This document shows, piece after piece, positions 2,479 through 23,787 of a stretch of DNA of 62,052 bases. Every line of letters starts with the position of its first letter. The first letter of the stretch is position 1. The DNA is taken from NCBI GenBank assembly GCA_964607465.1, contig CAZSKS010000008.1:1-62052 (forward strand). Direction: 5' to 3'. The position numbers and the translations under genes were made by a program. A model generated the notes under the pieces. It made no database searches and was not told where the DNA came from. It saw only the letters and a list, made by a program, of their open reading frames with translations. Source of the stretch: an uncultured Gemmatimonadota bacterium (GTDB lineage: Bacteria > Gemmatimonadota > Gemmatimonadetes > Palauibacterales > Palauibacteraceae).

Positions 2479-2559
2479 GCCCGGGCACGGAACCCGCGAT
2501 CCCGGAGAGCCCCGGCCGCGAACCGATTCCGACCAGGCTCACGATCAGGGAGGCACGCC

Positions 2560-3408: not shown

Positions 3409-3410
3409 CG

Positions 3411-4737: not shown

Positions 4738-5298
4738 TCAGCCCCCGAGCCCCAGCTCCGCCACGGCCCGCAGGATGTCCTGGGAGCTGAGGACGCCCAC
4801 CAGGCGCTCGTCCTCCAGCACCAGCGCCCGGTGCACCTCCGCCTCCAGCATCCGGCGGGCGGCCTCCTCGACCTCGGTGTCGGGCGTGACGGAGAACACG
4901 CCGCGGGTCATGACCTCGGAGGCCACGTGCTCGTCGAGGGCGTTCCACTCGGGGCTCCGGCTCTCCTCGAAGCGCTGCGCGACGTCGGCGCCGGCGTCCT
5001 CCCAGAAGCCGGTGAAGTAATCGCCTACCGCCTCGCGCCCGACCTCCACCTCCCAGGCGGGCTCCTCGGGCACCTCGCCGAACCCCTCGCCCTGGAGCTC
5101 GCGCCGGGCCGGGACGCCGGGGCTCTCGGCGTCGAAGCCCACGAGGTCGGTGGCCGAGACGACCCCGAGGATCGTCTCGTTCGTCACGACGGGCACGCCC
5201 CCGATGTGCTCGGTGGCCAGGACCGAGGCCACCTCCCGGAGGGTCGTCTCGGGGCCCACGGTGATCACGTCACGGGTCATCAGATCGGCTACCTTCAT
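4738..5298 (-). CDS. CBS-pair domain protein
   Basis: Two CBS motifs: MKVADLMTRDVITVGPETTLREVA...GGVPVV...GVVSATDLV and VMTRGVFSVTPDTEVEEAARRM...HRALVLEDERLVGVLSSQDILRAV. They are separated by an acidic insert. Start is the ATG at 5298; the longer ORF-track N-terminus is Arg/Gly-rich noise. Confidence 0.85.
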   Translation of the reverse strand: MKVADLMTRDVITVGPETTLREVASVLATEHIGGVPVVTNETILGVVSATDLVGFDAESPGVPARRELQGEGFGEVPEEPAWEVEVGREAVGDYFTGFWEDAGADVAQRFEESRSPEWNALDEHVASEVMTRGVFSVTPDTEVEEAARRMLEAEVHRALVLEDERLVGVLSSQDILRAVAELGLGG

Positions 5299-5342
5299 GT
5301 CTCCCGTCCTCTTCGTTCGGTGGGTCTTTCGTCCAGGTCGGC

Positions 5343-5624
5343 TCAGCCGGCGACCTCGAGGTTGTGGATCAGGGCCGCCAGGAAGGCGCCCAGCTCCGCG
5401 CTCTCCAGCTCCTCCCCCGCCTCGCTCGCGTGCTCCGTGGCACAGGCGGGATGGAGGAAGGCCACCTCCAGGTATCGCTCCTTCGCGTCCGGCGCCCAGA
5501 CGACGTTCCCGCCCGACTCCGAACCCAGCGGCTCGCCGCAACGCTCGCAGCGGACGTGGGCGGCCACGTCGTGGTCTCCCAGGCGGGGCAGGCCCTCCGT
5601 GTCCCGGGTGAGCGTCAGGCTCAC
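5343..5624 (-). CDS. small CxxC...HxxC protein, paralog B (unknown function)
   Basis: 93 aa: VSLTLTRDTEGLPRLGDHDVAAHVRCERCGEPLGSESGGNVVWAPDAKERYLEVAFLHPACATEH... It aligns without gaps to the upstream ORF across the RC-x2-CG...V.W.P....YL.VAFLH..C core. The GTG start overlaps the upstream stop (GTGA at 5621-5624). Confidence 0.6.
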   Translation of the reverse strand: MSLTLTRDTEGLPRLGDHDVAAHVRCERCGEPLGSESGGNVVWAPDAKERYLEVAFLHPACATEHASEAGEELESAELGAFLAALIHNLEVAG

Positions 5625-5926
5625 AGGAAGCGCTCCAGACTCTCGAGGTAGTCCTCCAGGGGGGCCACCCGCACCGGGCCGCCCACCTGCTTCCACGTCG
5701 CCTCCACGCGTCCGCCCGCCTGCTCCCGGAAGGCCTCCACGCATCCCTCGTGGAGGAAGGCGACCGAGAGGTACGTGGCATTCTCCTCCGGCCGCCACGC
5801 GACCCGCCCGTTCGCCGGCTTGGAGATCTCCCTGCCGCAGTCGTCGCACCGGAGCAGGGGCGCGTGGCCGTCGCCGGCCTCGCGGCGGACGGTGGGGGCG
5901 TCGAGCCTCTCGACCGAGACGGTCAC
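5621..5926 (-). CDS. small CxxC...HxxC protein, paralog A (unknown function)
   Basis: 101 aa containing ...LLRCDDCGREISKPANGRVAWRPEENATYLSVAFLHEGCVEAFREQAGG... It shares the spacing C-x2-C-x27-H-x2-C with paralog B. GTG start at 5926. Confidence 0.6.
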   Translation of the reverse strand: MTVSVERLDAPTVRREAGDGHAPLLRCDDCGREISKPANGRVAWRPEENATYLSVAFLHEGCVEAFREQAGGRVEATWKQVGGPVRVAPLEDYLESLERFL

Positions 5927-5932
5927 GGGCCG

Positions 5933-6256
5933 CTACTCGAAGCGGGAGGCGGCGCGCTCGAAGCCCGACCGCAGATCGTCGAGGGCCGATTCGACGCCCG
6001 ATCTGACGTCCTCCCAGGCGGTCTCGCTCGTGTCCTGGAACAGCGACAGCTTCAGGCGTGCCGTCTCCAGCTTCCCCCGCAGCTTGCCGATCTCCTCGGC
6101 GTATCGGATGCGGGCGTCGGCCTTCGCCTTCCGGGCCTTCGCCTCCCACAGGTCGAGCCGGGCGGCCATCTCCTGGATCTGAGCCTCCCGCTTCTCGCGC
6201 CAGGCGCGGCGGGTGTCGGGGTCGTCCTGCTGCCGGGTCGTGCCTTCGGTCGTCAT
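5933..6256 (-). CDS. coiled-coil stress-type protein (unknown family)
   Basis: 107 aa starting at the ATG at 6256, with a strong SD (GGGAGAGG 5 nt upstream). Charged heptad-like sequence: AWREKREAQIQEMAARLDLWEAKARKAKADARIRYAEEIGKLRGKLETARLKL. It is the first gene behind the 6352-6381 promoter motif. Confidence 0.6.
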   Translation of the reverse strand: MTTEGTTRQQDDPDTRRAWREKREAQIQEMAARLDLWEAKARKAKADARIRYAEEIGKLRGKLETARLKLSLFQDTSETAWEDVRSGVESALDDLRSGFERAASRFE

Positions 6257-6351
6257 CGTCCTCTCCCGTTCGGGTCGGCCCGCCGCCTCCCGTCGGCCCT
6301 CTCGGGACCGACGGAGCTCTCGGCGCCGGGCACCATCTCGTCTGCACGACA

Positions 6352-6381
6352 AGGATACCGTGCAAGTCTCCCTCCGTCTGT
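6352..6381 (-). promoter_or_regulatory. stress-promoter-like motif ACAGAC-N18-TATCCT (coiled-coil / CxxC-paralog / CBS operon)
   Basis: Minus-strand reading: cACAGAC ggagggagacttgcacgg TATCCT. It lies about 96 nt upstream of the ATG at 6256. The architecture is the same at 8185, 8363 and 18300. Confidence 0.55.
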
Positions 6382-6414
6382 GGGGAGATCCTCGACGCCG
6401 GATGTCGGGAGTTT
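6378..6414 (-). promoter_or_regulatory. 13-mer GATCTCCCCACAG plus a degenerate second copy upstream of the coiled-coil operon
   Basis: Plus strand shows CTGTGGGGAGATC (6378-6390) and ATGTCGGGAGTTT (6402-6414), with starts 24 nt apart. The first copy is fused to the ACAGAC element. Confidence 0.45.
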
Positions 6415-6443
6415 CAGGGCGTGCCGGAATCCGGGTCGGCGGC

Positions 6444-6914
6444 CTACGTCGCGGAGGCCAGAGGAGCCCCGTCCGGGCCCTCGACGGCCACCCTCACGTC
6501 GATGCCGCGCCGCACGGCCCCGGTCACCACGCAGTAGTCCTCGAACAACTCGAGGCAGCGGGCGGCCCGGCCGCGGTCGTCCGGCTCCAGCTCGAGGCTC
6601 AGGGTGACGTCGCTGACCTCCACCCTGAGCCTCCCGTCCTCGTTGCGGCCGACACGCGTCTCCACGACCGTCCGCAGACCCCGCGGCTCGACGTCGCCCC
6701 TGCGGAGACAGAACAGGAGGCTCGCGCTGAGGCAGTTGCCGATCGCCGCCGAGAGCACCTCCGAGGCGGCGGGCCCCGAACCCTCCCCCAGGGGCTCCGG
6801 CTCGTCCATGACCAGCTGCGTCCCGGAGGACGCGAAGTCGACCCGGAAGCGGAAGCCGCCGAGGGATTCCAGGCTCACCGTCACGCTCCGTCCGTCCTCT
6901 TGATCGGTCGCCAT
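6444..6914 (-). CDS. OsmC/Ohr family peroxiredoxin-like protein
   Basis: OsmC-like features: EPEPLGEGSGPAASEVLSAAIGNCLSASLLFCL and a second Cys region, LELFEDYCVVTGAV. I preferred the ATG at 6914 because of an SD (GGGAGAA) upstream. The ATG at 6932 is an alternative. Confidence 0.8.
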   Translation of the reverse strand: MATDQEDGRSVTVSLESLGGFRFRVDFASSGTQLVMDEPEPLGEGSGPAASEVLSAAIGNCLSASLLFCLRRGDVEPRGLRTVVETRVGRNEDGRLRVEVSDVTLSLELEPDDRGRAARCLELFEDYCVVTGAVRRGIDVRVAVEGPDGAPLASAT

Positions 6915-7068
6915 CCAGGGTTCTCCCGTCATCGTGGGGGTTCGTCGCTGCAGGGAGCGAGCGGGACCCGGGAACCGGAGGGTTCCGTGTCCTTCGCCCC
7001 GCCGTCCCGCAGCGAGTCCGGGACGAAGGCGGCGGCCCGGGCCCGGGGGCTCTCGCGCGGTCGATGCC

Positions 7069-7590
7069 TCATGCGGGGACTTCGGCCCGGGCCACGGCGC
7101 GGACGACGTCCATGCTGGTCACGATCCCCGCCAGGGTCGACCCGTCCAGGACCAGGGCGCGGTGCACGCCGCCCTGGACCAGGAACCGGGCCAGCTCCGC
7201 CAGGGTGGCCTCCGGGCGGACCGAGAAGGTGGCCGGCGTCATGATGTCCCGCACCGCCCGGGCTCCGAGCTTCGATCGCGGCAGCGAGCTCGGAAGACCG
7301 GGCGAGGGGGCGTCCGGGAGCCGGAAGAAGGTCGAGAGCGGGTCCCGGCTCGGGTCCCGCCCCCGCCGGGACGGCGGCCGCCCGGAGGCGGCCTCCTCCC
7401 CGGCGGCCCGGGCCACGTCGCTCACGGAGACGACGCCCTGGACGTCGTCGTCCGGTCCCACCACCGGGACGCCGCTGACGTCGTGCTCCTCCAGCAGCTC
7501 CAGCAGCCTCGCGACCGTGGCGTCCGGCGCGACCGTGAGCACGTCCTCCTGCATGATGTCGGCGGCTGTCCATCGGAAGATGTCGTTCAC
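7069..7590 (-). CDS. CBS-pair domain protein
   Basis: Two CBS motifs: AADIMQEDVLTVAPDATV...VSGVPVVGPDDDVQGVVSVSDV and VRDIMTPATFSVRPEATLAELA...HRALVLDGSTLAGIVTSMDVVRAV. It is a paralog of the 4738-5298 protein. GTG start with an AGAGG SD. Confidence 0.85.
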   Translation of the reverse strand: MNDIFRWTAADIMQEDVLTVAPDATVARLLELLEEHDVSGVPVVGPDDDVQGVVSVSDVARAAGEEAASGRPPSRRGRDPSRDPLSTFFRLPDAPSPGLPSSLPRSKLGARAVRDIMTPATFSVRPEATLAELARFLVQGGVHRALVLDGSTLAGIVTSMDVVRAVARAEVPA

Positions 7591-7661
7591 GCTGACCTCT
7601 GTTTCGTGGGTGAGACGATTCGTGCGTGATGCGCGTCCGTCACCGGTCGTCCGGGGAAGGC

Positions 7662-8117
7662 TCAGTCGCCCTCGATCTCGATGCGACGTCCCCGCGCCAG
7701 CTCGGTCTTCGGCAACCGGACGGTGAGCACACCGTTCTTCATCTCGGCCGTGACGTCCCCGGCGTCGACGGAAGCGGGGAGGGCGAAGGAGCGGGAGAAG
7801 GCGCCGTAGCGCCGTTCGGAGACTCGGACCTCGCCGTCTTCCTCATCGCGCTCGGTTTCCACCTTCTTCTCACCATGGATGCGGAGGACGTCGTTCTCCA
7901 CCTCGATCTGGACGTCCTCCCGGGTGAGCCCCGGCATCTCCGCGGTGAGCACGATCTCGTCGTCCGAGTCCGTCACCTCGACGGCGGGCATCCACACCAT
8001 CTCCTCGCTCTCCTCGAACAGATTCTCCATGAGCCGGCTCATCCGGTCGTCCAGCGGGGCGAAGGACGGGGTGGCGAAAAGGCTGCGGGGGACGCGGCGT
8101 GTCAGGAACCTGGTCAT
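7662..8117 (-). CDS. Hsp20/alpha-crystallin family small heat shock protein
   Basis: Alpha-crystallin domain: PAVEVTDSDDEIVLTAEMPGLTREDVQIEVENDVLRIHGEKK...ERRYGAFSRSFALPASVDAGDVTAEMKNGVLTVRLPK. The ATG at 8117 has a GGGAGAG SD; the ORF-track start at 8144 has none. Confidence 0.92.
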   Translation of the reverse strand: MTRFLTRRVPRSLFATPSFAPLDDRMSRLMENLFEESEEMVWMPAVEVTDSDDEIVLTAEMPGLTREDVQIEVENDVLRIHGEKKVETERDEEDGEVRVSERRYGAFSRSFALPASVDAGDVTAEMKNGVLTVRLPKTELARGRRIEIEGD

Positions 8118-8184
8118 GGTGCTCTCCCGGGTCGGAAAGGTCATAGGGGAAGCGTCTCGATGACGCTGGCGATGCTGTAGACGA

Positions 8185-8214
8185 AGTCTACGAGGTGAGC
8201 GGCCGGACGTCTGT
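8185..8214 (-). promoter_or_regulatory. stress-promoter-like motif ACAGAC-N18-TAGACT (hsp20, possibly also CBS and osmC)
   Basis: Minus-strand reading: gACAGAC gtccggccgctcacctcg TAGACT. It lies 68 nt upstream of the ATG at 8117. Confidence 0.5.
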
Positions 8215-8234
8215 CCGGATTTGTCGGGGCCAGC

Positions 8235-8270
8235 CTGTCGGGAGATTCACCGACTCCCTGTGGGGAGATC
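8235..8270 (-). promoter_or_regulatory. two direct copies of the 13-mer (G/A)ATCTCCC(C/G)ACAG upstream of hsp20
   Basis: Plus strand shows CTGTCGGGAGATT (8235-8247) and CTGTGGGGAGATC (8258-8270), with starts 23 nt apart. A third copy in the opposite orientation lies at 8354-8366 (GATCTCCCGACAG), fused to the hpf promoter motif. Confidence 0.45.
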
Positions 8271-8362
8271 CCGCGGGGTCATCGGGGAAGCGGCGGCCGG
8301 ACGCGGGACGAGGGCCGTGGCCGGAGGGGAGTTTCCCCTCGCGCCCGGTCGACGATCTCCCG

Positions 8363-8392
8363 ACAGACAGGCAGGCTGTCGGCCGCTATCCT
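8363..8392 (+). promoter_or_regulatory. stress-promoter-like motif ACAGAC-N18-TATCCT (hpf-CSD)
   Basis: gACAGAC aggcaggctgtcggccgc TATCCT, 65 nt upstream of the ATG at 8457. Confidence 0.55.
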
Positions 8393-8456
8393 GATCCGTG
8401 GTCGCTCCGGGCAGCCCCCGGCCAGCCAGGGATCGAGAAGGAGAGGAGACGAACCC

Positions 8457-9038
8457 ATGCAGATACCACCGGAGATCAGCTTCCGCGGCGTCCCGGTCAC
8501 CGACCGGCTCAAGGGTCGGATCCAGGACGAGGTCGACAAGCTGGAGCGCTACTACGACGGCATCGTGCGGTGCCGGGTGGCCGTCGAGCTGCCACACCGC
8601 CGCCACGAGGACGGGAACCTGTACCACGTGGGCATTCGCGTCACCGTCCCCGGGCGCCAGCTGGTGGTCAGCCACGACCCGGGAAGGAACGAGACCCACG
8701 AGGATCTGGACGTGGCCATCACCGACGCCTTCCAGGCCATGGCCCGCCAGCTCGAGGAGCACTCCCGAGAGGTGCGGCACGAGGTCAAGACCCACGAGGT
8801 GCCGCCCCACGGCGAGGTACGGAAGCTGTTCCCGTACGAGGACTACGGATTCATCCGGACGCCGGACGGGCGGGACGTCTACTTCCACAGGAACGCCGTC
8901 GCCGACGGAGGCTTCGACGAGCTGGAGCTCGGCACGGAGGTGCGCTTCGCCGAGGAGCAGGGCGTCGAGGGACCGCAGGCGACCGTCGTGCACCTCCTGG
9001 GGAAGCGCGATCTCCCGCCCGTCGACACCGTGAGGTGA
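8457..9038 (+). CDS. HPF/RaiA-like ribosome-associated domain fused to a cold-shock (CSD/OB) domain
   Basis: The N-terminal ~110 aa, MQIPPEISFRGVPVTDRLKGRIQDEVDKLERYYDGIVRCRVAVE...LYHVGIRVTVPGRQLVVSH...LDVAITDAFQAMARQLEE, fits the S30AE/HPF fold pattern. The C-terminal part, GEVRKLFPYEDYGFIRTPDGRDVYFHRNAV...ELELGTEVRFAEEQGVEGPQATVV, looks like a CSD. Strong SD (AAGGAGAGGAG). Confidence 0.75.
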   Translation: MQIPPEISFRGVPVTDRLKGRIQDEVDKLERYYDGIVRCRVAVELPHRRHEDGNLYHVGIRVTVPGRQLVVSHDPGRNETHEDLDVAITDAFQAMARQLEEHSREVRHEVKTHEVPPHGEVRKLFPYEDYGFIRTPDGRDVYFHRNAVADGGFDELELGTEVRFAEEQGVEGPQATVVHLLGKRDLPPVDTVR

Positions 9039-9111
9039 GCGCGCGCGGGGCGCTCCACCGGGCGGACGCCGTGACGCGGGAGGCTCCCCGCGCCGGCCGG
9101 CCCGCCGGGGA

Positions 9112-9258
9112 TCACTCCGGCCGGAGCATCCCGATCAACCGGTAGAGGAGGAGGGCGCCGATCGCCGCGGGCAGCGCCCAGCTCCAGGGAGGGCCGACGC
9201 CGGCCAGCAGGGTCAGCAGCCAGCCCACGGTGAGCAGCAGGAGTAGCGTCCAGACCAT
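9112..9258 (-). CDS. 48-aa two-helix membrane peptide (not in the supplied ORF track)
   Basis: My own translation: [56 protein letters not shown] lies 6 nt upstream of the ATG at 9258, and the stop is at 9112-9114. It lies between hpf-CSD and the glucan synthase. Confidence 0.5.
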
Positions 9259-9506
9259 CCCTACCTCCATATTCGAAGGCCCGATCGAGCGCCGCGGCGA
9301 GACGCGGCGCTCCGTGCTCCGCCGCCCTCCGTCCCGCCCGGTCGCATGTCACGTCGAAGCCGTCATCCCCGGTCGATCCGCCTCCACCCGCCGGGCCCCG
9401 CGTCCGGGGGAGCCAGGGCCGTCCGCCGCCCCCGGATCGGGCGCGATCCCGTGACCGGACGCGGCCCGGGTCGGAGTCGGAAAGGCCCGTCCGCCGGGAC
9501 CGCCGC

Positions 9507-12500
9507 GTGAGCGGTCTCGACCTCGCCGGCCTCTTCCGGCGGCTGGCGGGCCGGAACGACGGCGGCCCCTCCGGCGACCTCCCGGACCCGATCCGGGGTG
9601 CCATCTTCGGCCCCGACCGGCTGCGACTCCACGCCGCCGGCCTGGCGGAGGAGCACCGGGTGGACCGGCGCGAGCGCCGGGGCGCCCGCGTCCTGGACCG
9701 TCTGGCCGACAACGAGCGGATCCTCCGGAGCGCCTACCGCGACCTGACGGGGGCCGTCCGGCGCGACGAGGCCGTATCGCCCGCCGCCGAGTGGCTCCTG
9801 GACAACTTCCACCTGGTCGAGGAGCAGGTCCGGGAGGCCCGGGAGTCGCTGCCCGAGGGCTACCAGCGCCAGCTTCCCAAGCTGACCCGAGGCGAGCTCG
9901 CGGACCACCCCCGCCCCTACGGGCTGGCCCGGGAGTACGTGGCCCACACGGACAGCCGGTTCGATCCCGAGGCGCTGGAGAGCTTCGTCGAGGCCTACCA
10001 GGAGGTCTCCCCCCTCACCATGGGCGAGATCTGGGCCCTGCCCAGCTCCCTCCGGCTGGTGCTGGTGGAGAACCTGCGCCGGCTGGCCGAGCGGATCGTG
10101 GGCTCCCGGGAGGCCCGTGCGGAGGCGGACCGCGTCGCGGAGCAGGTCCGGGAGGCGGTGGTAGAGGACGGGGATCCCGTGGCCCCGCTCCGGCCCCGGC
10201 AGCGGGGCGAGGCCCGGATGGACCGCGCGTTCATCGTCGAGCTGGTGCACCGGCTGCGCGAGGAGGACGCCCGGGCCATGCCGGCGCTGGCCTGGCTGGA
10301 GGAGCGGGCCGAGCGGGCCGGCGCGACCCTCGAGGAGCTGGTGCGGGAGGAGCACGCGAGCCAGCTCTCGGCCCAGGCGACGGTGGCCAACATCGTCACC
10401 AGCCTGCGGAAGATCGCCTCCTTCGATTGGGCGGACTTCTTCGAGGACGTCAGCCGGGTGGAGCGGATCCTCCGCCGGGATCCGTCCGGCGTCTATCCCC
10501 GGACGGACTTCGCGACCCGGGACGAGTACCGGCACGCCGTCGAGGAGCTGGCCCGGGGCTCGGGGGTGGACGAGGAGGAGGTGGCCCGCCGGGCCGTGGC
10601 GCGGGCCGCGGCGGCCCGGGACGGGGACGGCGCGGGCGGCGCGGGCTCGGGCGGGAACGGCGGGGAGCCGGAGCCCGGTGAGTCGCGCTCGTCGGAAGGG
10701 GCCCGCGCGGGCTACCTGGGCCATCACCTCGTCCTGGAGGGACGGCGGGCCTTCGAGGAGGACCTGGGCTATCGGGTCCCCCTCGCCCGCCGGTTGCACA
10801 GGGCCTTCGTGGGGGCCGCCTACCCCGGCTACTTCGGGACCCTGGCCCTGGCCACGCTGGCGCTGCTGGCCCTCCCGCTGGGCTACGCCGCCGACGCCGG
10901 GGCGGGAGGGTGGACCCTGGTCCTGATCGGCCTGCTGGCCCTGGTCCCCGCCACCGACCTGGCCCTGGCGGTGCTGCACCAGGACGTGACCGAGCTGGTG
11001 CCGCCGCGCCGGCTCCCGAAGCTGGAGCTGGCCGACGGCGTGCCCGAGGAGATGAAGACGCTGGTGGCCGTGCCCACGCTCCTGGAGAGCGAGGAGGGCG
11101 TCCGGGAGGAGGTGGAGCGGCTGGAGGAGCGCTACCTGGCCAACTCCAGCGGACATCTCGCCTTCGCCCTCCTCGGCGACTGGCGGGACGCGCCGCGGGA
11201 ATCCATGCCGGGGGACGAGGAGCTTCTGGCGACGGCCGCCCGCGCCCTGCGGGAGCTGAACGAGCGCTACGGCCCGGCCCCCGACGGCCACCCCCGCTTC
11301 CTGCTCCTCCACCGCCGGCGGGTGTGGAGCGAGAGCGAGGGGCGCTGGATGGGCTGGGAGCGAAAGCGGGGCAAGCTGGAGGAGCTGAACCGCCTCCTGC
11401 GCGGGGACGGGGAGACCACGTACCTGGAGCGGGACGACGGGCTGACCGACGTGGCGCCCGACGTCCGGTTCGTCCTCACCCTGGACGCCGACACCCGCCT
11501 CCCGCCGCGCGCGGCCCGCCGGCTGGTGGGGACCCTGGGCCATCCGCTCAATCGCCCCCGCTACGACGAGGAGCTGGGCCGGGTGACCCGGGGCTACGGC
11601 ATCCTGCAGCCCCGGATCACGGCCCTCCTCACCCGGGCCGGCGAGGGGTCCTGGTACCACCGCATCCACTCGGGCCCCACGGGCATCGACCCCTACTCCT
11701 CGGCGGCGTCGGACGTCTACCAGGACCTCTTCGGCCGGGGGACGTTCGTGGGCAAGGGGATCTACGACGTGGACGCCTTCCAACGGTCGCTGGAGGGGCG
11801 GGTGCCGGAGGGGGCCCTGCTGAGCCACGACCACTTCGAGGGGGCCTTCGCCCGCTGCGGCCTGGCCAGCGACATCGAGCTGTTCGACGACTTCCCCACC
11901 CACTTCGAGCAGAACGCCCGGCGCCTTCACCGGTGGGCCCGGGGCGATTGGCAGCTCCTTCCCTGGATCCTGGGACACCCTCCGGAGGTGGAGGGACGGG
12001 ACGTGCCGGAGAGCCCCCCGTTCCTGAGCTGGTGGAAGATGGTGGACAACCTCCGCCGCACCCTCTCCCCGCCCTCGGCCCTGCTGCTGCTGGTGGCCGG
12101 CTGGCTGTTCCTGCCGGTCTCGCCCCCGGTGTGGACCGCCTTCGTCGTGGCCACCGTCGCTGTCCCGGCGGTGGTGCCGGTGGTGGGCGGCCTGGTCCCC
12201 CGGCGGCGGGGCGCGCCGCTCCGGGCCCACGTCCGGGGGGCGGTCCGGGAGGCGGGCGCCGCGGCGGCCCGGGTCGGGCTGGAGGTGGCCTTCCTGGCCA
12301 ACCACGCCTGGCTCATGGTCGACGCCGTGGTCCGCTCGCTGGTCCGGGTCTACGTGACCGGGCGCAACCTGCTGGAGTGGACGCCGGCGGCCATGGCCGG
12401 TCGGGGGCTGGGCGGGGGCGTGGCGGGCGCCTACCGGCGCCAGTGGCGACCGGTGGCCGTGGCGGCGGCCGCGGCGGGGGCGGTGGCCTGGCTCCGGCCG

Positions 12501-15500
12501 GCGGCCCTGCCGGCGGCCCTCCCCCTGGCGGCGGCGTGGGCTGCGTCCCCCCTCCTGTCGTGGTGGGTGAGCCGTCCCGTACGGGCCGAGGAGCCCGAGG
12601 AGCTGTCAGCCGAGGACGTCCTGGAGCTGCGCGGCACGGCGCGGGAGAGCTGGCGCTTCTTCGAGGAGACGGTGGACGGGACGTCGGCCGCCCTGCCGCC
12701 GGACAACCTGCAGGAGGATCCGGAGCCCCGGGTGGCGCACCGGACGTCGCCGACCAACGTCGGGATGTATCTCCTCTCAGTGATGGCGGCCCGGGACTTC
12801 GGCTGGATCGGCACCCGGGAGACGGCGGAGCGCCTGGAGCGGACCCTGGAGACGATGGAGGGCCTGGAGCGGATCCGGGGCCACTTCTACAACTGGTACG
12901 ACACCCGCTCCCTCGTCCCCCTGGAGCCCCGCTACGTCTCGACGGTGGACAGCGGCAACCTCGCGGGCCACCTGCTGACGGTGGCCGAGGCGTGCCGGGA
13001 GTTCCGCGAGGGCCCCGTCCGGCCCGAGGAGGCGGCCGCGGGCATCGCCGACGCCCTGCGCCTGGCCCGACGGGCCGCGGGGGAGGGCGCGGGCCGCCTG
13101 CACGGCGGGACGGTGTCGCGCCACGAGCTGGAGGCGTCGTTCCGTCGGCTGTCGGAAGGTCTGGACGCGCCGCCGCCGGAACCGGACGCATGGGCGCACC
13201 GGCTGGAGGAGCTCCGGGAGGAGGCCGCGTCCCTGGAGGACATGGCCTCGGTCGTGGCCGAGCAGGCCGGGGGGCGCGAGGCGGCCTCCCTGGCGTACTG
13301 GACGTCGGCGGTCCGCCGGGCGGTGGAGAGCCACCGCCGGGACCTGGCGGACCGTGAGGAGGAGCTGGAGCTGGACCGCCGCCTGCGCCGTTTGTCGTCC
13401 CGGGCCGAGGCCATGGCGCGGGAGATGGACTTCTCCCTGCTCTACGATCCGACCCGGAAGCTCTTCTCCATCGGGTACCGGCCGGAGGAGGACGAGCTGG
13501 ACGAGGGCTACTACGACCTGCTGGCGTCCGAGGCCCGCCTGGGCAGCCTGGTGGCCGTGGCCACCGGCGACGTGGGCACCGAGCACTGGTTCCACCTGGG
13601 CCGACAGGTGACACCGGTGGACCACGGGGCGGCGCTGGTCTCCTGGGCCGGCTCCATGTTCGAGTACCTGATGCCCTACCTGGTCATGGAGCCGCCGCCG
13701 GGCACGATCCTGGAGCGGACGCAGCGCCTGGTCGTGAAGCGGCAGATCGAGTACGGCCGGGAGCGCGGGGTCCCGTGGGGCGTCTCCGAGTCGGCCTACA
13801 ACGCCCGGGACCTGGAGATGACCTACCAGTACTCCCACTTCGGGGTGCCGGGCCTCGGGCTGGCCCGGGGGCTCAGCGAGGACCTGGTGGTGGCCCCCTA
13901 CGCCACGTCCCTGGCCGCCATGGTGGCCCCCTCCGAGGCGATCCGGAACCTCCGACGCCTGGAGGCCATGGGAGCGCGCGGGGAGCGGGGCTTCTACGAG
14001 GCCGTGGACTTCACCCCCTCCCGCCTGTCGACGGACGAGGACTTCGCCGTGGTCCGGGCCCACATGGCCCACCACCAGGGGATGACCGTGGCGGCCCTGG
14101 CCAACGTGGTCCAGGCCGGCCGTCTGCGGGAGCGGTTCCACCGGGTGCCGATGATCGGCTCGGTGGACGTGCTGCTCCAGGAGCGGGTCCCGCGGAACGT
14201 GCCCGTCTCCCGGCCGCGCCCCGAGGAGGTGGAGACGGTGCGCCACGTCCGGGAGATCTCCCCGCCGGTCTCCCGGCGCTTCACCACGCCCCACCGTAGC
14301 CCGCCCGCCACCCACCTGCTGTCGAACGGCCGCTACCGGGTCATGATCACCGCCGCCGGGGGCGGCTACAGCCGGTGCGGGGAGCTGGCGGTCACGCGGT
14401 GGCGGGAAGATCCCACCCGCGACCCGTGGGGCACCTTCATCTACCTGCGGGACGTGGACGGCGGCGACGTATGGTCGGCGGGCTGGCAGCCCACCGGCGC
14501 CCGGCCGGACGACTACGAGGTGGTCTATTCCGAGGGCCGGGCGGACATCCGCCGGCGCGACGGGGCGCTCTCCACGTCGATGGAGGTCGTCGTCTCGCCC
14601 GAGGAGGACGGCGAGCTCCGGCGGATCACGCTCAGGAACCAGGGCGCACGCGCCCGGGAGGTGGAGGTCACCAGCTACGCCGAGGTCGTCCTGGCGCCTC
14701 CCGAGGTCGACACGGCCCACCCGGCCTTCCAGAAGCTCTCCGTCCAGACCGAGTTCGACGCGGCCACCGGCGCGCTGCTGGCCACGCGACGCCGCCGCGA
14801 GCCCGGGGATCCGGAGGTGTGGGCGAGCCACGTGGCGGCGGTGGAGGGGGAGACCGTCGGCCCGCTCCAGTACGAGACCGACCGGGCCCGCTTCCTGGGG
14901 CGGGGTCAGGACCCCTCGGCCCCGGACGCCGTGACGGAGGGGCGCCCGCTGTCCAACACCACCGGCCCGGTGCTGGATCCCGTCGTCAGCCTGCGCCGCA
15001 CGCTGCGGATCCCGCCGGGCGGGTCGGCGCGAATCACCTTCGCCACGCTGGTGACGTCCTCCCGGGAGGAGGCGGTCGACCGGGCGGAAGTGTACCGGGA
15101 CCCGGCGGCCTTCGAGCGGGCGGCCGGCCTGGCGTGGACCCAGGCCCAGGTCCAGCTCCAGCACCTGGGCGTCAGCCCCGACGAGGCGCACCTGTTCCAG
15201 CGGCTCGCCAGCCGCCTCCTCTACCTGGACCCGGAGATGCGTCCCGGCTCCGAGCGCCTGGCCCGCAACGGCAGGGGACAGTCCGGCCTCTGGAAGTACG
15301 GCGTCTCCGGGGACCGGCCGATCGCGGTGGTGCGGATCGCGCAGGTCCGCGACCGCGAGCTGGTGCGGCAGCTCCTTCGGGCCCACGAGTACTGGGCGTG
15401 GAAGGGGCTGTCCGCGGACCTGGTGATCCTGAACGAGCACCCGGTCTCCTACGCCGACGAGCTGCAGGACTGGATCGGGCGGCTGATCCGGGTGAGCCAC

Positions 15501-18260
15501 ACGACCGGCGGGGAGGAGCAGGGGGTCCAGGGCGACGTCCATCTGCTGCGGACGGAGGAGATGGACGGGGAGGACGTGGAGCTGCTGCAGGCGGCGGCCC
15601 GGGTGGTCCTGCACGCCCGGGACGGCTCGCTGTCCGAGCAGCTGGAGGACGTCCGGTCGCAGGAGACGCGTCGCCCGCCGCCGACCGACCTGGCGCCCCC
15701 GGACGTGGCGCCCGAGGCGCCCTCGCCGCGGCCGGGCCTCCGGTTCTACAACGGGCTCGGCGGGTTCTCGGAGGACGGGCGGGAGTACGTCATCGTCCTG
15801 GGCGAGGGGCAGTGGACCCCGGCGCCCTGGGTGAACGTGGTGGCCAACGAGCGCTTCGGCTTCCTGGCCTCCGAGGCGGGCTCCGGGTTCACCTGGGCGG
15901 CGAACAGCCGGGAGAACCGGCTCACGCCCTGGTCCAACGATCCCGTGGCGGATCCGCCGGGGGAGGCCCTGTACGTGCGGGACGAGGCCACCGGAGAGGT
16001 GTGGACCCCGACGCCCCTGCCCATCCGGGAGGCCACGCCCTACCGGATCACCCACTCCCAGGGGTGGACCCGCTTCGAGCACGAGAGCCACGGCGTCCGC
16101 CTGGAGCTGACCCAGCTCGTTCCCCCCGACGACCCGGTCAAGATCTCCCGACTCCGGCTGCGCAACCGGTCGGGCCGGTCCCGGCGGCTCTCGGTCACGG
16201 CCTACGCCGAGTGGGTGCTGGGCGTGCAGCGGGAGCGGGCGGCGCCCCACGTGAGGACCGCGGTGGACGAGGCGACGGGGGCGCTCCTGGCCCGCAACGG
16301 CTGGAACGAGGAATTCGCCCGCCGGACGGCCTTCGCGGACCTGGCCGGCGAGCAGGACGCCTGGACGTGCGACCGCACGGAGTTCCTGGGCCGCAACGGG
16401 ACCCCGGCCTCCCCGGCGGCGATGGCTCCCGGTCGGGAGCTGTCGGGCACCGCCGGCGCGGGACGGGACCCGTGCGCCGCCCTGCGCCGCGAGGTGCGCC
16501 TGGCGCCGGGCGGGGAGGCCGAGGTGGTGTTCCTGCTGGGGCAGGGGCGCGACGCCGACGAGGCCCGGGAGCTGGTCCGGCGATACCGGGCGGCGGATCC
16601 GGACGACGTGCTGGAGGCGGTCCGCACCCACTGGGACGACATCCTGGGCACCGTGCAGGTGGACGTGCCGGACGGCTCCATGGAGCCGATGCTGAATCGG
16701 TGGCTCCTCTACCAGACCCTCTCCTGTCGGCTCTTCGGACGTTCGGCCTTCTACCAGTCGGGGGGCGCCTACGGCTTCCGGGACCAGCTCCAGGACGTCA
16801 TGGCGCTGACCGTCGCCCGCCGCGACCTGGCCCGGGAACACATCCTCCGGGCCGCGGGCCGCCAGTTCCCCGAGGGCGACGTCCAGCACTGGTGGCACCC
16901 GCCGTCGGGCCGCGGCGTGCGGACCCGCATCTCCGACGACCTGCTGTGGCTGCCCTTCGCGGCGCTCCACTACCTGCGGGTCACCGGCGACGCCTCCGTG
17001 CTGGAGGAGGAGGTGCCCTTCCTGGAGGGCGAGGTGCTGGGGGAGGACGAGCTGGAGCGGTACTTCGAGCCCGAGCGGACGGAGGCGACGGCCACGCTGT
17101 ACGAGCACTGCGCCCGGGCCCTGGACGCACGTCTCGAGGCCGGGCCCCACGGCCTCCCCCTCATGGGGTCGGGCGATTGGAACGACGGCATGGACCGGGT
17201 GGGCCACCGGGGGCGGGGGGAGAGCGTGTGGATGGGCTGGTTCCTCCACATGAACCTGGCGGGCTTCGCGCCGCTGGCCGAGGCCCGGGGCGAGGAGGCT
17301 CGGGCCCGGGCGTGGCGACGGCGCATGGACGAGCTGGCGGAGGCCCTGGAGCGCCACGGCTGGGACGGGGACTGGTACCGGAGAGCCTACTTCGACGACG
17401 GGACGCCCCTGGGCTCCTCGGCCAACGACGAGTGCCGCATCGACTCCATCGCCCAGTCCTGGGCCGTGCTGTCGGGCGTGGCCCGGCCGTCCCGCCAGCG
17501 GCGGGCGATGCAGTCGGTGGAGCAGTACCTGGTGCGCCGGGGGGACGCGCTGGTGCTCCTCTTCACGCCGCCCTTCGACGAGGGGGAGCTGGACCCCGGC
17601 TACATCAGGGGCTACCTGCCGGGGGTGCGGGAGAACGGCGGCCAGTACACCCACGCCGCCATCTGGTCGGTGCTGGCCTTCGCCGAGCTGGGGGACGGCG
17701 ACGGGGCGGCGGAGCTGTTCTCGATCCTGAATCCCGTCAACCAGGCGAGCACACGGGCCGGGGTGCACCGCTACAAGGTGGAGCCCTACGTGTCGGTGGG
17801 CGACGTCTACGCCGAGCCGCCCCACACCGGACGGGGGGGCTGGAGCTGGTACACGGGCTCGGCGGGCTGGATGCACCGGGCGGGGCTGGAGTGGATCCTG
17901 GGCTTCCGCCTGCGGGGCGACACGCTGCGCCTGGACCCCTGCATCCCGCGGGACTGGCCGGGCTTCTCGATGACCTTCCGGTACCATTCGGCGCGCTACG
18001 AGATCGAGGTCGAGAGCCCCGGCGGCGACATGCGGGGCGTATCGGCGGCGGAGGTGGACGGCGAGCCGGCGCGGGTCGACGACGAGGGCGCCTGGATTCC
18101 CCTGGCCGACGACGGGGCGACCCACCGCGTGCGGGTGCTGCTGGGCGGCGCGGGGGACGGGGAGGCGAGCCGGTCGGACGGGGACGGCGGGATCGGCTCG
18201 GGGGGTGAGGACGGCTCGCCGGGCGCTGCCCACGAGCGTGGGGGATCTCCCGACGGCTGA
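9507..18260 (+). CDS. ndvB: cyclic beta-1,2-glucan synthase (NdvB/ChvB/Cgs type: membrane GT domain plus GH94-like phosphorylase domain)
   Basis: 2917-aa single ORF. It has TM helices flanking a glycosyltransferase core ([41 protein letters not shown] as a QxxRW-like motif). The C-terminal GH94-type region carries [13 protein letters not shown] and [10 protein letters not shown]. Size and domain order match Cgs/NdvB. Confidence 0.9.
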
Positions 18261-18299
18261 CCCTCCGGTTCCCCCACGACGACCGTCCAGATCCAGACG

Positions 18300-18329
18300 A
18301 CAGACGGACGGACGCCGGCGGGGTACTTT
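18300..18329 (+). promoter_or_regulatory. stress-promoter-like motif ACAGAC-N18-TACTTT (usp-usp, possibly the 20542 membrane protein)
   Basis: gACAGAC ggacggacgccggcgggg TACTTT, 48 nt upstream of the ATG at 18377. Confidence 0.5.
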
Positions 18330-18376
18330 GCCGGAGGTGGTCGCCCGGCATCCACCCCGACAGCGAGGCCGACGCC

Positions 18377-19567
18377 ATGATCACGCCTCACACGCCGCAG
18401 GAAGAGGTTCCGAGCCCCGGTGATCCGTCCTCCGACGCGCGGCCGCCCTCCGACGCGCGGCCGGCCTCCGATCGGCACGTCAGAAGCCCGACGGAGGTGC
18501 CGGAGACGATCCTCGTCGCCCTGGACGGCTCGCCCTTCGGGGAGACGGCGCTGGCACACGCCCGGGTGCTCGCGCGGGCTTTCGGCAGCCGCCTCCACCT
18601 GGTCACGGTGTTCGATCCGAGCCGATCCGGAGGGACCGTGGCCGTGAGCGCCGAATGTCGGCTCCAGATGGCAGAGGCGAAGAACTACCTGGAGCGCCTG
18701 GCCAGGAGTCTGGAGGACGACCGGCTCGCGGCCGACCTCGAGACGCGGGAGGGTAACCCCGCCCACGAGATCGTGGCCGCCGCCCGGGAGCGGGAGGCGG
18801 GTCTCGTGGTCCTCGCGGCGCGGCCACGGCGACGGGACGAGCGACTCGTCTCCCGGGGCGTCGCCCAGGGCGTCATCGCGGCAGGCGTCGGCTCGCTCCT
18901 GGTGGCGCGGGGAGAGCCGATGTGTCGGGGGCGTGACCGGGCGGATGCGATGTACCGGAGGATCGCCGTCGCCGTGGACGGCTCTTCGGCCAGCCACCGG
19001 GCCCTGCGTGTGGCGGCGTCGCTGGCCCGGAGCGAGGGCGCGCGTCTGGTGCTCGTCCACGTCTTCCCTCCCGGGACCGGAACGTCGGAGGGGCGCGCGG
19101 CCAGCCGGAGCCAGGGGGGAGAGTCGGGGGTCGGCACCGACGCTCCCCGGTCGGACGGTGCGTACCTGCGGGAGCTGGCGAGCCGGCTGGACGGCCCGGG
19201 AACCGGGGTGGACACCGTCCTGTGCCGCTCGAGCCGCGTGGCCGACACCGTGGAGGAGGTGGCGAGGGAGGTGGGGGTCGACCTGCTGGTGCTGGGAGCT
19301 CGGGGGGCCGGGCGGGCGAGCTCCCGTTACGGCGGATGCGCCCGCTGGCTCCTGCGGCACGGCCAGGTGCCGGTCCTGGTCGTGCGGGGCGCCGAGGGGA
19401 AGACGACGGCGGACGGGTGGAAGACGGGGGCGCGGGGCGCCCTGCGAAATCGGCGGCCCCGGGAGCATATTCGTGGCGGGCCACGATACGGTCGTGGCCC
19501 GCGATCCGGGACCCCGGTCCGTGCCGCTGAGTCCGGAGGCGTCAACGAAGAGAGGAGCCGTCGATGA
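18377..19567 (+). CDS. universal stress protein, tandem USP domains, with a repeat-containing N-terminus and a long basic tail
   Basis: Two USP domains: ETILVALDGSPFGETALAHARVLARAFGSRLHLVTVF...LVVLAAR and YRRIAVAVDGSSASHRALRVAASLARSEGARLVLVHVF...LLVLGARGAGR...VPVLVVR. The stop overlaps the next start (ATGA at 19564-19567). The exact start is uncertain. Confidence 0.85.
   Translation: MITPHTPQEEVPSPGDPSSDARPPSDARPASDRHVRSPTEVPETILVALDGSPFGETALAHARVLARAFGSRLHLVTVFDPSRSGGTVAVSAECRLQMAEAKNYLERLARSLEDDRLAADLETREGNPAHEIVAAAREREAGLVVLAARPRRRDERLVSRGVAQGVIAAGVGSLLVARGEPMCRGRDRADAMYRRIAVAVDGSSASHRALRVAASLARSEGARLVLVHVFPPGTGTSEGRAASRSQGGESGVGTDAPRSDGAYLRELASRLDGPGTGVDTVLCRSSRVADTVEEVAREVGVDLLVLGARGAGRASSRYGGCARWLLRHGQVPVLVVRGAEGKTTADGWKTGARGALRNRRPREHIRGGPRYGRGPRSGTPVRAAESGGVNEERSRR
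18429..18475 (+). repeat. in-frame 18-bp tandem repeat (2.6 copies) in the N-terminus of the first USP gene
   Basis: CCTCCGACGCGCGGCCGC / CCTCCGACGCGCGGCCGG / CCTCCGATCGG, encoding the repeated peptide (P)SDARP. Confidence 0.8.
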
Positions 19568-20487
19568 ACATCAAGAAGGTGCTGTTCGCCACCGATTTCT
19601 CGGAGCGCTCGGAGACGGCGCTCCCCCACGCGCTGTGGTACGCCCGGGAATTCGGGGCGGAGCTCCACATGCTGCATGCCGTGGTGCTCCACGCCGCGGA
19701 CCCGGCCAACCCCGACGTCGACTTCCCGGACCTGGAGGCGGCGTACGACGAGGTGCGGCGGTGGGCCTCGGCCCGCATGGAGGCGGCCGCCGGCCGGGTC
19801 GACGACGCCGGCGTCGCGGTGAAGCGCGTGGAGGAGAGGGGCGTCGCCGCCGCCCCGGTGATCCTGGATTACGCCCGGGAGGAGGGGGTGGACCTGATCG
19901 TGCTGGCCACCCACGGCCGGCGCGGCGTCCGCCGGATGCTGATGGGGAGCGTGGCCGAGGAGGTGGTCCGGCTGGCCGCCCGCCCCGTCCTGACGGTGCG
20001 GCCGAACGGGGCGGAGGAGCACGGCGAGCCGCCCCGCAGCGTCCTCGTTCCGGTGGACTTCTCGGAGCACTCCGACCGGGCGCTGGCCTACGGCGGCGCC
20101 CTGGCCGGGAGGACCGGCGCCGAGCTCCACGCGCTCCACGTGGTCCCGGAGATGTCGTTTCCCGACCCCTATTTTGCCGAGGCCGCCCAGATCCGCGCCA
20201 TGGCGAAGGCCGCCCAGGAGAGGGTGCCCGAGGCCATGCAGCGCAACGTCCGGGAGGTGCTGGGCGAGGAGGCCGACGTCCACGTCCACCTGGAGGTGGG
20301 CACGCCGGCGGCCACCATCGTCCGCGTGGCCGAGGAGGAGGCCATCGACCAGGTGGTCCTCTCGAGCCACGGCCGCACGGGCCTCGAGCGGATGCTGCTG
20401 GGGAGCGTGGCCGAGGGCGTCGTCCGCCGCGCCCCGTGTCCGGTCCTGACCGTGAAGGCCTTCGGCCGGGACCTGCTGGCCGGGTGA
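19564..20487 (+). CDS. universal stress protein, tandem USP domains
   Basis: MNIKKVLFATDFSERSETALPHALWYAREFGAELHMLHAV...DLIVLATHGRRGVRRMLMGSVAEEVVRLAARPVLTV, plus a second copy of the same pattern (SVLVPVDFSEHSDRAL...VVLSSHGRTGLERMLLGSVAEGVVRRAPCPVLTV). Confidence 0.92.
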   Translation: MNIKKVLFATDFSERSETALPHALWYAREFGAELHMLHAVVLHAADPANPDVDFPDLEAAYDEVRRWASARMEAAAGRVDDAGVAVKRVEERGVAAAPVILDYAREEGVDLIVLATHGRRGVRRMLMGSVAEEVVRLAARPVLTVRPNGAEEHGEPPRSVLVPVDFSEHSDRALAYGGALAGRTGAELHALHVVPEMSFPDPYFAEAAQIRAMAKAAQERVPEAMQRNVREVLGEEADVHVHLEVGTPAATIVRVAEEEAIDQVVLSSHGRTGLERMLLGSVAEGVVRRAPCPVLTVKAFGRDLLAG

Positions 20488-20541
20488 GCCGGCCGCGGCG
20501 GGACGACCACGTGTCGCGGGACGGCGGCCGGACGCACCCGC

Positions 20542-22990: not shown

Positions 22991-23131
22991 ATATAACCGC
23001 ATACGGAACTCCACAATTCGACGGACGCGGGGAGCGCCGGCCGGGGCGAGGCCCGGGCGAGGACTGTGCCGGCCGGGAGAATTCCACGGGCGGGAAGCGC
23101 GCCAGCCGCGGTCAGGCGGGTCGCCAGGCCG

Positions 23132-23623: not shown

Positions 23624-23787
23624 CGGGGGACGGCATGACGGACGAGACGAAGGACGAAGGCCGGGCGCCGCTGCCCCAGCGCCTCTACGAGAGCATCTGG
23701 CTGTGGGCGGCGGTGGCGATCCTCTTCTGGCTCCTCTCGTACGTGGTCTGGGGCTTCATCGACCTGACGGTCATCCCGGGGGGCTGA
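23620..23787 (+). CDS. 55-aa single-TM protein, candidate small subunit (IIa-like) of the second oxidase
   Basis: MTGDGMTDETKDEGRAPLPQRLYESIWLWAAVAILFWLLSYVVWGFIDLTVIPGG. It is translationally coupled to the regulator upstream and ends 1 nt before the subunit II ATG at 23789. It occupies the same position as ORF 27-224 in cluster 1. Confidence 0.55.
   Translation: MTGDGMTDETKDEGRAPLPQRLYESIWLWAAVAILFWLLSYVVWGFIDLTVIPGG

Follow-up and report, generated by a model that had tools for sequence, protein, structure and literature searches.

Box-bearing promoters before stress genes of an uncultured Gemmatimonadota bacterium, candidate members of a low-oxygen regulon

What kind of promoter is shared by neighbouring stress genes in a Gemmatimonadota genome, and which protein reads it? 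Gemmatimonadota are abundant in soils and sediments and rarely cultivated, and to our knowledge almost nothing is known of how their transcription is controlled. The question is raised by contig CAZSKS010000008.1 of assembly GCA_964607465.1 (Palauibacteraceae), whose 62,052 nucleotides are the whole stretch of DNA analysed here and are called the window. A preliminary description had pointed to four sites of the form ACAGAC-N18-TAnnnT, each before a stress transcription unit: one headed by a coiled-coil stress protein (unit 1), one by hsp20 (unit 2), the hibernation factor gene hpf-CSD (unit 3) and a pair of usp genes (unit 4). It had taken them for targets of an alternative sigma factor, which it preferred, or for a factor-dependent promoter class. 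From sequence comparison, we take all four to be activator-dependent promoters of the sigma-70 type that belong to one low-oxygen regulon, and we put the probability of this reading at roughly 0.6.

A box longer than the hexamer

The four-site observation is real. The window contains exactly four matches to ACAGAC-N18-TANNNT, at 6352-6381 and 8185-8214 on the minus strand and at 8363-8392 and 18300-18329 on the plus strand, where dinucleotide-preserving shuffles contain 0.01 on average and none of 100 reaches four. All four sites are intergenic, in a window of which 11.3% is intergenic by our gene list, and each is oriented toward its downstream gene. The hexamer alone is under-represented, with seven copies where 18.7 +/- 4.6 are expected from shuffles, and four of the seven are the promoter sites. 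From the end of TANNNT to the start codon there are 96 nt in unit 1 (ATG 6256), 65 nt for hpf-CSD (ATG 8457) and 48 nt for the usp pair (ATG 18377). For hsp20, the distance is 68 nt to the ATG at 8117, or 41 nt if the gene starts at 8144; the former is likelier, given its GGGAGAG ribosome-binding site and a product of 151 aa, the length seen in orthologs, and with it the 48-96 nt range given earlier is borne out. A position weight matrix (PWM) built solely from 14 promoters of other Gemmatimonadota contigs and then run on the window placed these same sites on top, at 42.2, 37.0, 31.7 and 22.5 bits, with the runner-up at 15.0 bits, the best genic site at 7.0 and the background at -37 +/- 10.

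ACAGAC is the 3' end of a longer box, (G)ATCTCCCSACAG, and consists of the final ACA of that box plus GAC. With at most one mismatch, the 12-mer ATCTCCCSACAG occurs five times in the window (0.97 expected), each time inside one of three promoter-bearing intergenic regions. The box in turn forms the right-hand side of an imperfect palindrome of 18-19 bp, TGTSGGGA-N2-3-TCCCSACA. For example, a perfect palindrome, TGTGGGGAGTATCCCCACA, stands before the cco operon of contig L121, and ideal copies read TGTGGGGA-GTA-TCCCCACA at that operon and CTGTCAGGATCTCCCGACAG in low-GC contigs. Shorter half-site patterns (CCSACAG, CSGACA) were uninformative, being too frequent at 74% GC.

How far the conservation extends can be read from 18 Gemmatimonadota promoters that were selected solely on ACAGAC-N18-[TC]AnnnT and numbered with TAnnnT at -12 to -7. 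Among the columns that were not selected, CTCCCG is kept at -42 to -37, G or A at -30, and C at -49 in 15 of the 18. A distal block is kept as well, GGGGA (-73 to -69)-N3-TCCCCAC (-65 to -59), with C-63 present in all 18 and C-59 in 17, and conserved columns recur near -86; the spacer from -29 to -13 shows no conservation. Across 42 non-redundant sites, CC[CG]AC[AG] recurs upstream of the proximal box at preferred offsets of 23-24 bp (15) and 46-48 bp (8), with almost none elsewhere. Every promoter of the window carries such an array, with one or two further copies of the box upstream, at -67 and in some also at -90, a period of 23-24 bp. Assuming the same numbering, the proximal palindrome would be centred near -43. 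Because conservation runs to about -49, repeats every 23-24 bp and has partial dyad symmetry, it points to a dimeric DNA-binding protein rather than to region 4 of a sigma factor. Dyad or tandem sites of about 18-20 bp, the proximal one overlapping the -35, are also what is found at class II sites of the NarL/FixJ superfamily. These are very probably co-regulated promoters with a protein-binding box, judging by their architecture.

The preliminary description had proposed looking for the motif upstream of orthologs in related genomes, and it is indeed there. In contigs L081-L088, whose HPF-CSD proteins are 82-87% identical, the motif stands before hpf, with or without an intervening dodecin gene, and likewise before hsp20, CBS and sll1863-like genes, with 18-bp spacers that have wholly diverged. 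All 14 sites outside the window are intergenic and co-oriented with the downstream gene. Two further Gemmatimonadota contigs, L089 and L090, were found via COX1. In the 21.7 kb of L089, all four copies of ACAGAC are promoter-positioned, before a CBS gene, before a Tll0287-like gene that heads an operon orthologous to the window's COX2-COX1, before a cytochrome c-nosZ-nosDFY operon and before a HisKA_3 kinase gene. L090 has one ACAGAC-type site, before a Usp gene. As a negative control we used a profile scan for HPF-CSD, which returned distant relatives only (at most 57% identity, mostly Proteobacteria). In 1.09 Mb around the HPF-CSD genes of these other phyla there were two plain matches and none with the extended box.

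Could the sites be chance similarities, or has some small mobile or repetitive element that plays no part in regulation left copies of itself here? A GC-rich genome does hold many CCGACA-like strings, and the window contig is 73.7% GC. We consider this highly improbable, since four intergenic, co-oriented sites were seen against an expectation of 0.01, orthologous positions are conserved across diverged spacers so that the comparative data already contradict it, the unrelated HPF-CSD loci yielded no extended box, and the flanks show no similarity to one another outside the boxes.

The box is also found in metagenomes. A scan of JGI metagenomes with the pattern GATCTCCCSACAGAC-N18-TANNNT returned 29 contigs of 40-75% GC, and these matches were used only where tandem units, a neighbouring regulator or kinase gene, or orthologous targets lent independent support. 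The supported half shows tandem units, with three or four copies of a 23-bp unit in L109. Its neighbours include single REC-domain proteins (L097, L102, L112), tandem Usp genes after COX2-COX1 (L101), and a homolog of the window's DUF2231 gene with a box promoter of its own (L108, L116). Four contigs of 40-43% GC (L095, L106, L107, L119) share a box promoter, …TCCTTACACAAACTGTCAGGATCTCCCGACAGAC-N18-TATATT, before a membrane adenylate/guanylate-cyclase-like gene.

Two side observations concern individual genes of the relatives. The dodecin gene between box promoter and hpf encodes 70 aa (L084 2386-2601, L086 1651-1863); it survives as a short remnant, MSSIAKVTFVVRGHG*, in L085 (~2062-2110) and is lost from the window. 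In L089, the box promoter of the nos operon precedes cytochrome c-nosZ-nosD-nosF-nosY at 15002-21642, which suggests that a clade II N2O reductase may be under direct two-component control.

A housekeeping -10 and the missing -35

All four sites of the window have a -10 of the housekeeping type (T-12, A-11, T-7). In promoters found through the box, where the -10 was not selected, it reads TATCCT (L090 8792, L128 3801) or TAGGTT (L128 10716), and in others CAATTT, GAATTT or GATCTT. The hexamer behaves differently. In sister clades, reached by a search with the box only, TCCCGAC(A) and the -10 are kept and the hexamer is altered: the promoter of the Pyr_redox/HPF-CSD unit of L128 has ACACCC-N18-TATCCT after an intact box, that of the L090 oxidase operon has ACAGTA-N18-TATCCT after an intact box, and further variants are ACAGAG (L121 cco operon), ACAGCC (L124) and ACTTCG (L128 Usp gene). 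Such a lack of conservation at the -35 position is typical of activator-dependent promoters. No TTGACA-type -35 lies 16-18 bp from the -10, and a consensus scan found no canonical sigma-70 promoter in 6000-9200. That the hexamer is unlike TTGACA, as was stated earlier, is true in the frame chosen there; shifted by one base, the upstream element becomes cAGACr-N17-TAnnnT, which agrees with TTGACA at 3-4 of six positions and would be a weak -35 at optimal spacing.

These features bear directly on the first of the two earlier proposals, in which a general-stress sigma factor of group 2/3 or ECF type would read ACAGAC as its -35 and TAnnnT as its -10. It is true that the 18-bp spacing is rigid in every ACAGAC-bearing promoter, that the consensus scan detects no TTGACA-like promoter, and that ECF sigma genes lie less than 10 kb from the regulator loci described below in L089, L125 and L127. 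Under an alternative sigma factor, conservation should be limited to one short block at -35 and another at -10; here it reaches 9-13 bp beyond the hexamer on the upstream side and recurs every 23-24 bp with dyad symmetry, and ACAGAC is replaced in sister clades while box and -10 stay. Nor is the -10 of ECF, sigma-B or sigma-54 type. The elements looked for were GGAAC / CGTC for ECF, GTTT-N14-GGGTA for sigma-B and GG-N10-GC, as in TGGCAC-N5-TTGC, for sigma-54. None of the four sites has the ECF GGAAC or the sigma-B GTTT at -35, and GGGTAC occurs solely at the usp site. Moreover, the box is found in genomes of 40-75% GC beside NarL-type regulators. We therefore regard a specialised sigma factor as an unlikely reader of these sites; a group 2, stationary-phase-like sigma factor that recognises the same -10 would work together with a box-binding protein, not replace it. 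The ECF genes near the regulator loci were set aside as the factor, having no box upstream and thus no autoregulation through it. A sigma-54 reading, prompted by the sigma-54 activator encoded in the window, was dropped as well: GG-N10-GC with TTGCA is plausible at one of the four sites only, 6381 on the minus strand, and is not common to them. What is known of sigma-B and sigma-F in Actinobacteria does not apply either, since the named close homologs of the window's COX1 all belong to Gemmatimonadota or Longimicrobiales and the contig is thus not actinobacterial. The window also encodes an Omp85/patatin protein.

The second earlier proposal, a factor-dependent class, is the one favoured here by the extent of the box, the sister-clade hexamers, the housekeeping -10 and the link to a regulator. 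Such a factor could also work by repression. The boxes would then be operators at which the same response regulator, or another protein, occludes the -35 until stress sets in. The proximal box does overlap the -35 position, and tandem sites can support cooperative repression. However, no recognisable -35 is present that could give strong basal transcription after release, the geometry is that of a class II activator, with a proximal site near -43 and helper sites upstream, and NarL-family regulons of similar content (DevR/OsdR) are activated (PMC5069765). These points are not decisive, and we give repression only a small share of the probability.

A candidate regulator and its kinases

If activation is the mode of action, which protein binds the box? 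Among the genes of the 62-kb window there is no sigma factor and no NarL-type regulator. The earlier statement that the window holds no candidate sigma factor or regulator thus stands for sigma factors and fails for regulators, because an Rrf2 protein (23066-23620) and a sigma-54-dependent response regulator (28116-29507, REC-AAA+-HTH_8) are encoded. Neither has a box associated with it, and the Rrf2 gene adjoins a second COX2/COX1-like pair (region 23066-26057).

The relatives offer a better candidate. In L089, the box promoter before the HisKA_3 kinase gene drives it divergently from an operon of a PAS-HisKA_3 kinase and a REC-GerE response regulator. The same arrangement, with the box before a HisKA_3 kinase(-Usp-CBS) operon and the PAS-kinase/regulator operon on the other side, is found in L089, L120 and L121, and the locus, kinase-Usp-CBS facing PAS-kinase-regulator, is conserved across Gemmatimonadota. 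It adjoins ccoNOQP/fixGHIS in Gemmatimonadales, and MgtC/DUF4010 and HPF-CSD in L128. The regulator is 82-100% identical across Gemmatimonadota, in hundreds of clusters. In L113, the exact 15-mer and a -10 stand directly before a regulator 71% identical to it, followed by a HisKA_3 kinase, and NarL-type regulators adjoin the box in L097, L102, L109 and L112. These box-adjacent regulators are 40-50% identical overall and keep the recognition helix SPK(T/S)V(D/E)(T/N)(Y/H)R(S/G)R, and a shared helix fits a near-identical DNA box.

By sequence, the regulator is 40% identical to E. coli UvrY, the recognition helices being SPKTVDTYRSRIM and SPKTVNSYRYRMF, respectively. Its best NCBIfam model is UvrY/SirA/GacA, at 180.6 bits, which is below the cut-off of 280, so that it is not an equivalog; against FixJ models it reaches 97.6 bits, also below the cut-off of 255. 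Its closest solved relatives are VraR (1e-41), NarL and DevR, with FixJ distant (E = 1e-18). The name NreBC that JGI pipelines give to the regulator is an automatic best-hit label. Of the two kinases, the one encoded with the regulator has a PAS domain that matches the haem domain of B. japonicum FixL (E = 5.6e-16, in the relative L089, not in the window) and aligns ...RSRHDSY... with ...RAKHRDQ..., which includes the proximal His of the FixL type. The same PAS also matches the haem-PAS of DosP/EcDOS and contains no Cys. Both kinase cores are HisKA_3, similar to DesK and NarX; the other kinase is without a haem-PAS, and the match to DevS/DosT is confined to the ATP-binding domains.

What connects regulator and box is gene neighbourhood only, and a different factor might bind the box, be it the window's Rrf2 protein, whose gene lies 5 kb from the usp unit, or an unlinked regulator, with the NarL-type genes among the targets. 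Against this, Rrf2 is not beside the box in any relative examined, in five unrelated contigs of varied GC the box is accompanied by regulators with a common recognition helix, and the GacA box, too, has the format of an 18-bp TGT...ACA palindrome, in keeping with the 40% identity to UvrY. A different binder is thus improbable, and the box-binding protein is probably a NarL-type response regulator, to judge from these shared neighbourhoods and helices.

From the above, a mechanism can be proposed. The binder would be a response regulator of the NarL/FixJ superfamily, from a UvrY/GacA-like subfamily with helix SPKTVDTYRSRIM, encoded elsewhere in the genome beside two HisKA_3 kinases. The haem-PAS kinase and the second, membrane-bound kinase would relay an O2, redox or related haem-ligand signal. 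At low oxygen, or upon a related signal, dimers of the phosphorylated regulator would bind the boxes near -43, -67 and sometimes -90. The proximal dimer, which overlaps the -35, would contact RNA polymerase and stand in for the missing -35 in the manner of a class II activator, and the GAC after the box may double as a weak -35 (cAGACr-N17-TAnnnT). Ribosome hibernation by HPF-CSD, the small heat-shock protein, and the Usp, CBS, OsmC and sll1863-family proteins would be switched on, and in relatives additionally terminal oxidases, N2O reductase and the kinase operon. The kinase-Usp-CBS operon would thereby be under positive feedback. Oxygen itself as the signal is plausible, at slightly less than even odds.

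Several observations weigh against this interpretation or parts of it. The training sites of the PWM were collected via the ACAGAC pattern, which makes its result partly circular, and the argument therefore rests on the unselected columns. About half of the metagenome matches have no supporting feature and are probably due to chance, according to position statistics. Conservation in Gemmatimonadota is weak over the left half of the proximal palindrome, and in hsp20 promoters a direct CSGACA repeat 10 bp upstream replaces that half. The GAC after the box is invariant in the window's clade, so that direct contact with sigma is possible there, and a site that overlaps the -35 is compatible with repression as much as with activation. 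The position equivalent to Arg220 of FixL is Met in the kinase PAS, and the ligand may therefore not be O2. Finally, the regulator and kinases are not on the window contig, and their presence in this genome is deduced from relatives.

Physiology of the four units and relation to known systems

The gene calls of the preliminary description hold, with support from Pfam and NCBIfam. Unit 1 (4741-6256, minus strand) encodes an sll1863-family coiled-coil stress protein (5936-6256), two CxxC paralogs (5624-5926 and 5346-5624) and a CBS-pair protein (4741-5214), and is taken as a single operon on account of gene spacing and an overlapping stop and start. The CxxC paralogs, of about 100 aa each, match no Pfam or NCBIfam family and are predicted to be co-transcribed with the sll1863-family and CBS genes. 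On the minus strand, the promoter has its proximal box, GATCTCCCCACAGAC, at 6376-6390 (15.8 bits; scores of individual boxes are box-only PWM bits), with ACAGAC inside it at 6376-6381, an upstream box, AAACTCCCGACA, at 6403-6414 (24 bp upstream of the proximal box, 17.7 bits), and a -10-like hexamer, TATCCT, at 6352-6357. Unit 2, on the same strand (6447-8144), comprises hsp20 (7665-8117 or 8144), followed by a CBS-pair gene (7072-7590) and an OsmC-like gene (6447-6932), which we infer to form an operon from their common strand and the lack of a further box promoter. Its proximal box, CAAATCCGGACAGAC, lies at 8209-8223 (14.1 bits), with upstream boxes AATCTCCCGACAG at 8235-8247 and GATCTCCCCACAG at 8258-8270, 24 and 47 bp further up (18.1 and 15.8 bits), and TAGACT at 8185-8190; TCCGGACAGACG is kept in the hsp20 promoters of L084 and L085.

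On the plus strand, unit 3 is a fusion gene of HPF (Ribosomal_S30AE) and a cold-shock domain (CSD) at 8457-9035. Its promoter has the proximal box GATCTCCCGACAGAC at 8354-8368 (18.6 bits), a distal palindrome, GGGGAGTTTCCCC, at 8326-8338, that is at the -67 position, one period of 23-24 bp upstream, and TATCCT at 8387-8392. The distal palindrome is kept in every hpf or dodecin promoter of the relatives. A GC hairpin, CCGGGCAGCCCCCGG, lies at 8407-8421, about 15-30 nt into the predicted hpf leader, and its sequence is kept in L081, L085 and L086. An RNA element in this leader was rejected, as the hairpin shows no compensatory changes or covariation and matches no Rfam family; nowhere in the window is there an Rfam family match. 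Unit 4, also on the plus strand, encodes two tandem-domain Usp proteins (18377-19564 and 19564-20484) and may continue into a COX1-like gene (20542-21858). Its proximal element, CCAGACGACAGAC, at 18293-18305, is the weakest copy of the box (its 22.5 bits are those of the whole promoter), and upstream boxes lie 47 and 24 bp from it (GATCTCCCGACGG at 18244-18256, GTTCCCCCACGA at 18268-18279), with TACTTT at 18324-18329.

Between the hpf and usp units there is a single open reading frame of 2917 aa (9507-18257, plus strand) with GH94 supersandwich and catalytic, glucoamylase-like and GH65 C-terminal domains, which resembles a cyclic beta-1,2-glucan synthase/phosphorylase and to which no box promoter above threshold can be assigned. 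The contig begins, at 1-4679 on the plus strand, within a COX2-COX1-DUF2231/cytochrome c'-MgtC/DUF4010 cluster, whose promoter is probably just beyond the contig end. Since box promoters head the orthologous oxidase operon in L089 and L090 and the DUF2231 homolog in L108 and L116, the first 22 kb may be one low-oxygen island.

The label "stress" given earlier to these units is correct, and we would sharpen it to oxygen limitation, to which the set of targets and the haem-PAS sensor point. The relatives add as targets heme-copper oxidase operons that are orthologs of the window's COX2-COX1, the cytochrome c-nosZ operon and the ccoNOQP neighbourhood. In addition, among the HPF-CSD loci of L001-L080, FNR/FixK-like boxes (TTGAT-N4-ATCAA, at most one mismatch) were found in 15 of 77 upstream regions, where about 1.8 are expected from a background of 0.024 per 300 nt. 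The genes with these FNR/FixK-like boxes are gamma- and alphaproteobacterial, and this suggests that many lineages use the HPF-CSD fusion at low oxygen.

Several known systems combine such features. In Mycobacterium, the proximal DosR box overlaps the -35. As in DevR/DosR and in OsdR of Streptomyces, we find a NarL-family regulator, two HisKA_3 kinases and a Usp gene in the regulator locus, several palindromic boxes per promoter, and a regulon with alpha-crystallin/HSP20, Usp proteins, a CBS-pair protein and an HPF-like factor. The differences are as clear: the box is TGTSGGGA-N2-3-TCCCSACA, the putative sensor has a FixL-type haem-PAS where DosS and DosT are haem-GAF kinases, the regulator resembles UvrY, MctR and NarL models more than any DevR-specific family, the Gemmatimonadota host is Gram-negative, and terminal oxidases and nosZ are among the targets. 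The OsdR/DevR consensus box is AGGGCCGATCGGCCCT or GGGAC-N4-GTCCC, and its regulon content has been described (PMC5069765). The pairing of a haem-PAS kinase that aligns the proximal His with a regulator of the NarL/FixJ superfamily, and the association of the locus with cbb3 oxidase (ccoNOQP/fixGHIS) and nos genes, recall FixL-FixJ. Unlike in that system, the kinase core is HisKA_3 of the DesK/NarX type, FixJ is distant, the Arg220 equivalent is Met, and no FixK intermediary is seen, the box lying directly on target promoters.

The GacA box is an 18-bp palindrome, TGTAAG-N6-CTTACA (PMC4950607), and shares with ours its length and the outer TGT...ACA, as GacA/UvrY share a similar recognition helix with the candidate regulator. 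Here, however, the inner half-site is TGTSGG and not TGTAAG, the regulator scores below the equivalog cut-off, the sites lie over the -35 while those of GacA are far upstream (-75, -196), the targets are protein-coding stress genes and not Rsm/Csr small RNAs, and there is no kinase of the BarA/GacS type. At class II promoters of FNR and Anr, the activator site overlaps the -35 and is centred near -41.5. The lxa locus of Burkholderia cenocepacia, with many Usp genes and alpha-crystallin, is activated by low oxygen and has a shared Anr-like palindromic box (PMC3721108). Usp and alpha-crystallin genes under a common palindromic box are thus a likeness, whereas FNR and Anr are Fe-S proteins of the CRP/FNR family with the box TTGAT-N4-ATCAA (TGA-N6-TCA), to which neither our box nor the candidate's family is related. 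NreBC of Staphylococcus, too, pairs a PAS-HisKA_3 kinase with a NarL-type regulator, responds to oxygen and targets a GC-rich palindrome, TAGGG-N4-CCCTA. Its box is different, and NreB senses oxygen by a Cys-ligated Fe-S cluster, whereas the PAS here is haem-PAS-like and has no Cys.

The putative system thus appears to function like DosR/OsdR and FixLJ, yet departs from each known family in a feature that defines it, be it the box, the sensor domain or the equivalog score. Its kind, a two-component-regulated promoter class, is already known, and box and regulator are undescribed in the searchable literature: concept searches for descriptions of the box or the Gemmatimonadota regulator gave only analogues (DosR/OsdR, Burkholderia lxa), and the box sequences themselves, when searched for in full text, turned up nothing but primers and unrelated eukaryotic sequences. 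The same box is apparently in use in other phyla. As a tentative idea, which we hold with some doubt, it may mark an undescribed multi-phylum master regulon in which a 19-bp box serves a FixL-like haem-PAS/HisKA_3 kinase pair and a UvrY-like regulator of the NarL family. Its outputs, proposed as tentatively, could be hibernation, chaperone and Usp functions, high-affinity oxidases and clade II N2O reductase.

For the reading of promoters from sequence, the case carries a caution: a hexamer at fixed spacing that looks like a -35 is probably the end of an activator box here, not a sigma element. For the organisms, a sharply defined cis-element means that regulons can be read directly from metagenomes, and a named candidate regulator and sensor provide a testable hypothesis, namely that one oxygen-responsive two-component system coordinates HPF-CSD, the sHSP, Usp and CBS proteins, alternative terminal oxidases and also, in part of the group, the nosZ operon. 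The hypothesis matters for N2O consumption. Gemmatimonas aurantiaca, for example, has a clade II nosZ, and its N2O reduction rises after O2 depletion (PMC10100939). If the multi-phylum regulon exists, Gemmatimonadota would have in it the oxygen switch that has been missing for their N2O reduction and dormancy, a functional counterpart of DosR and FixLJ that comes from a different regulator lineage.

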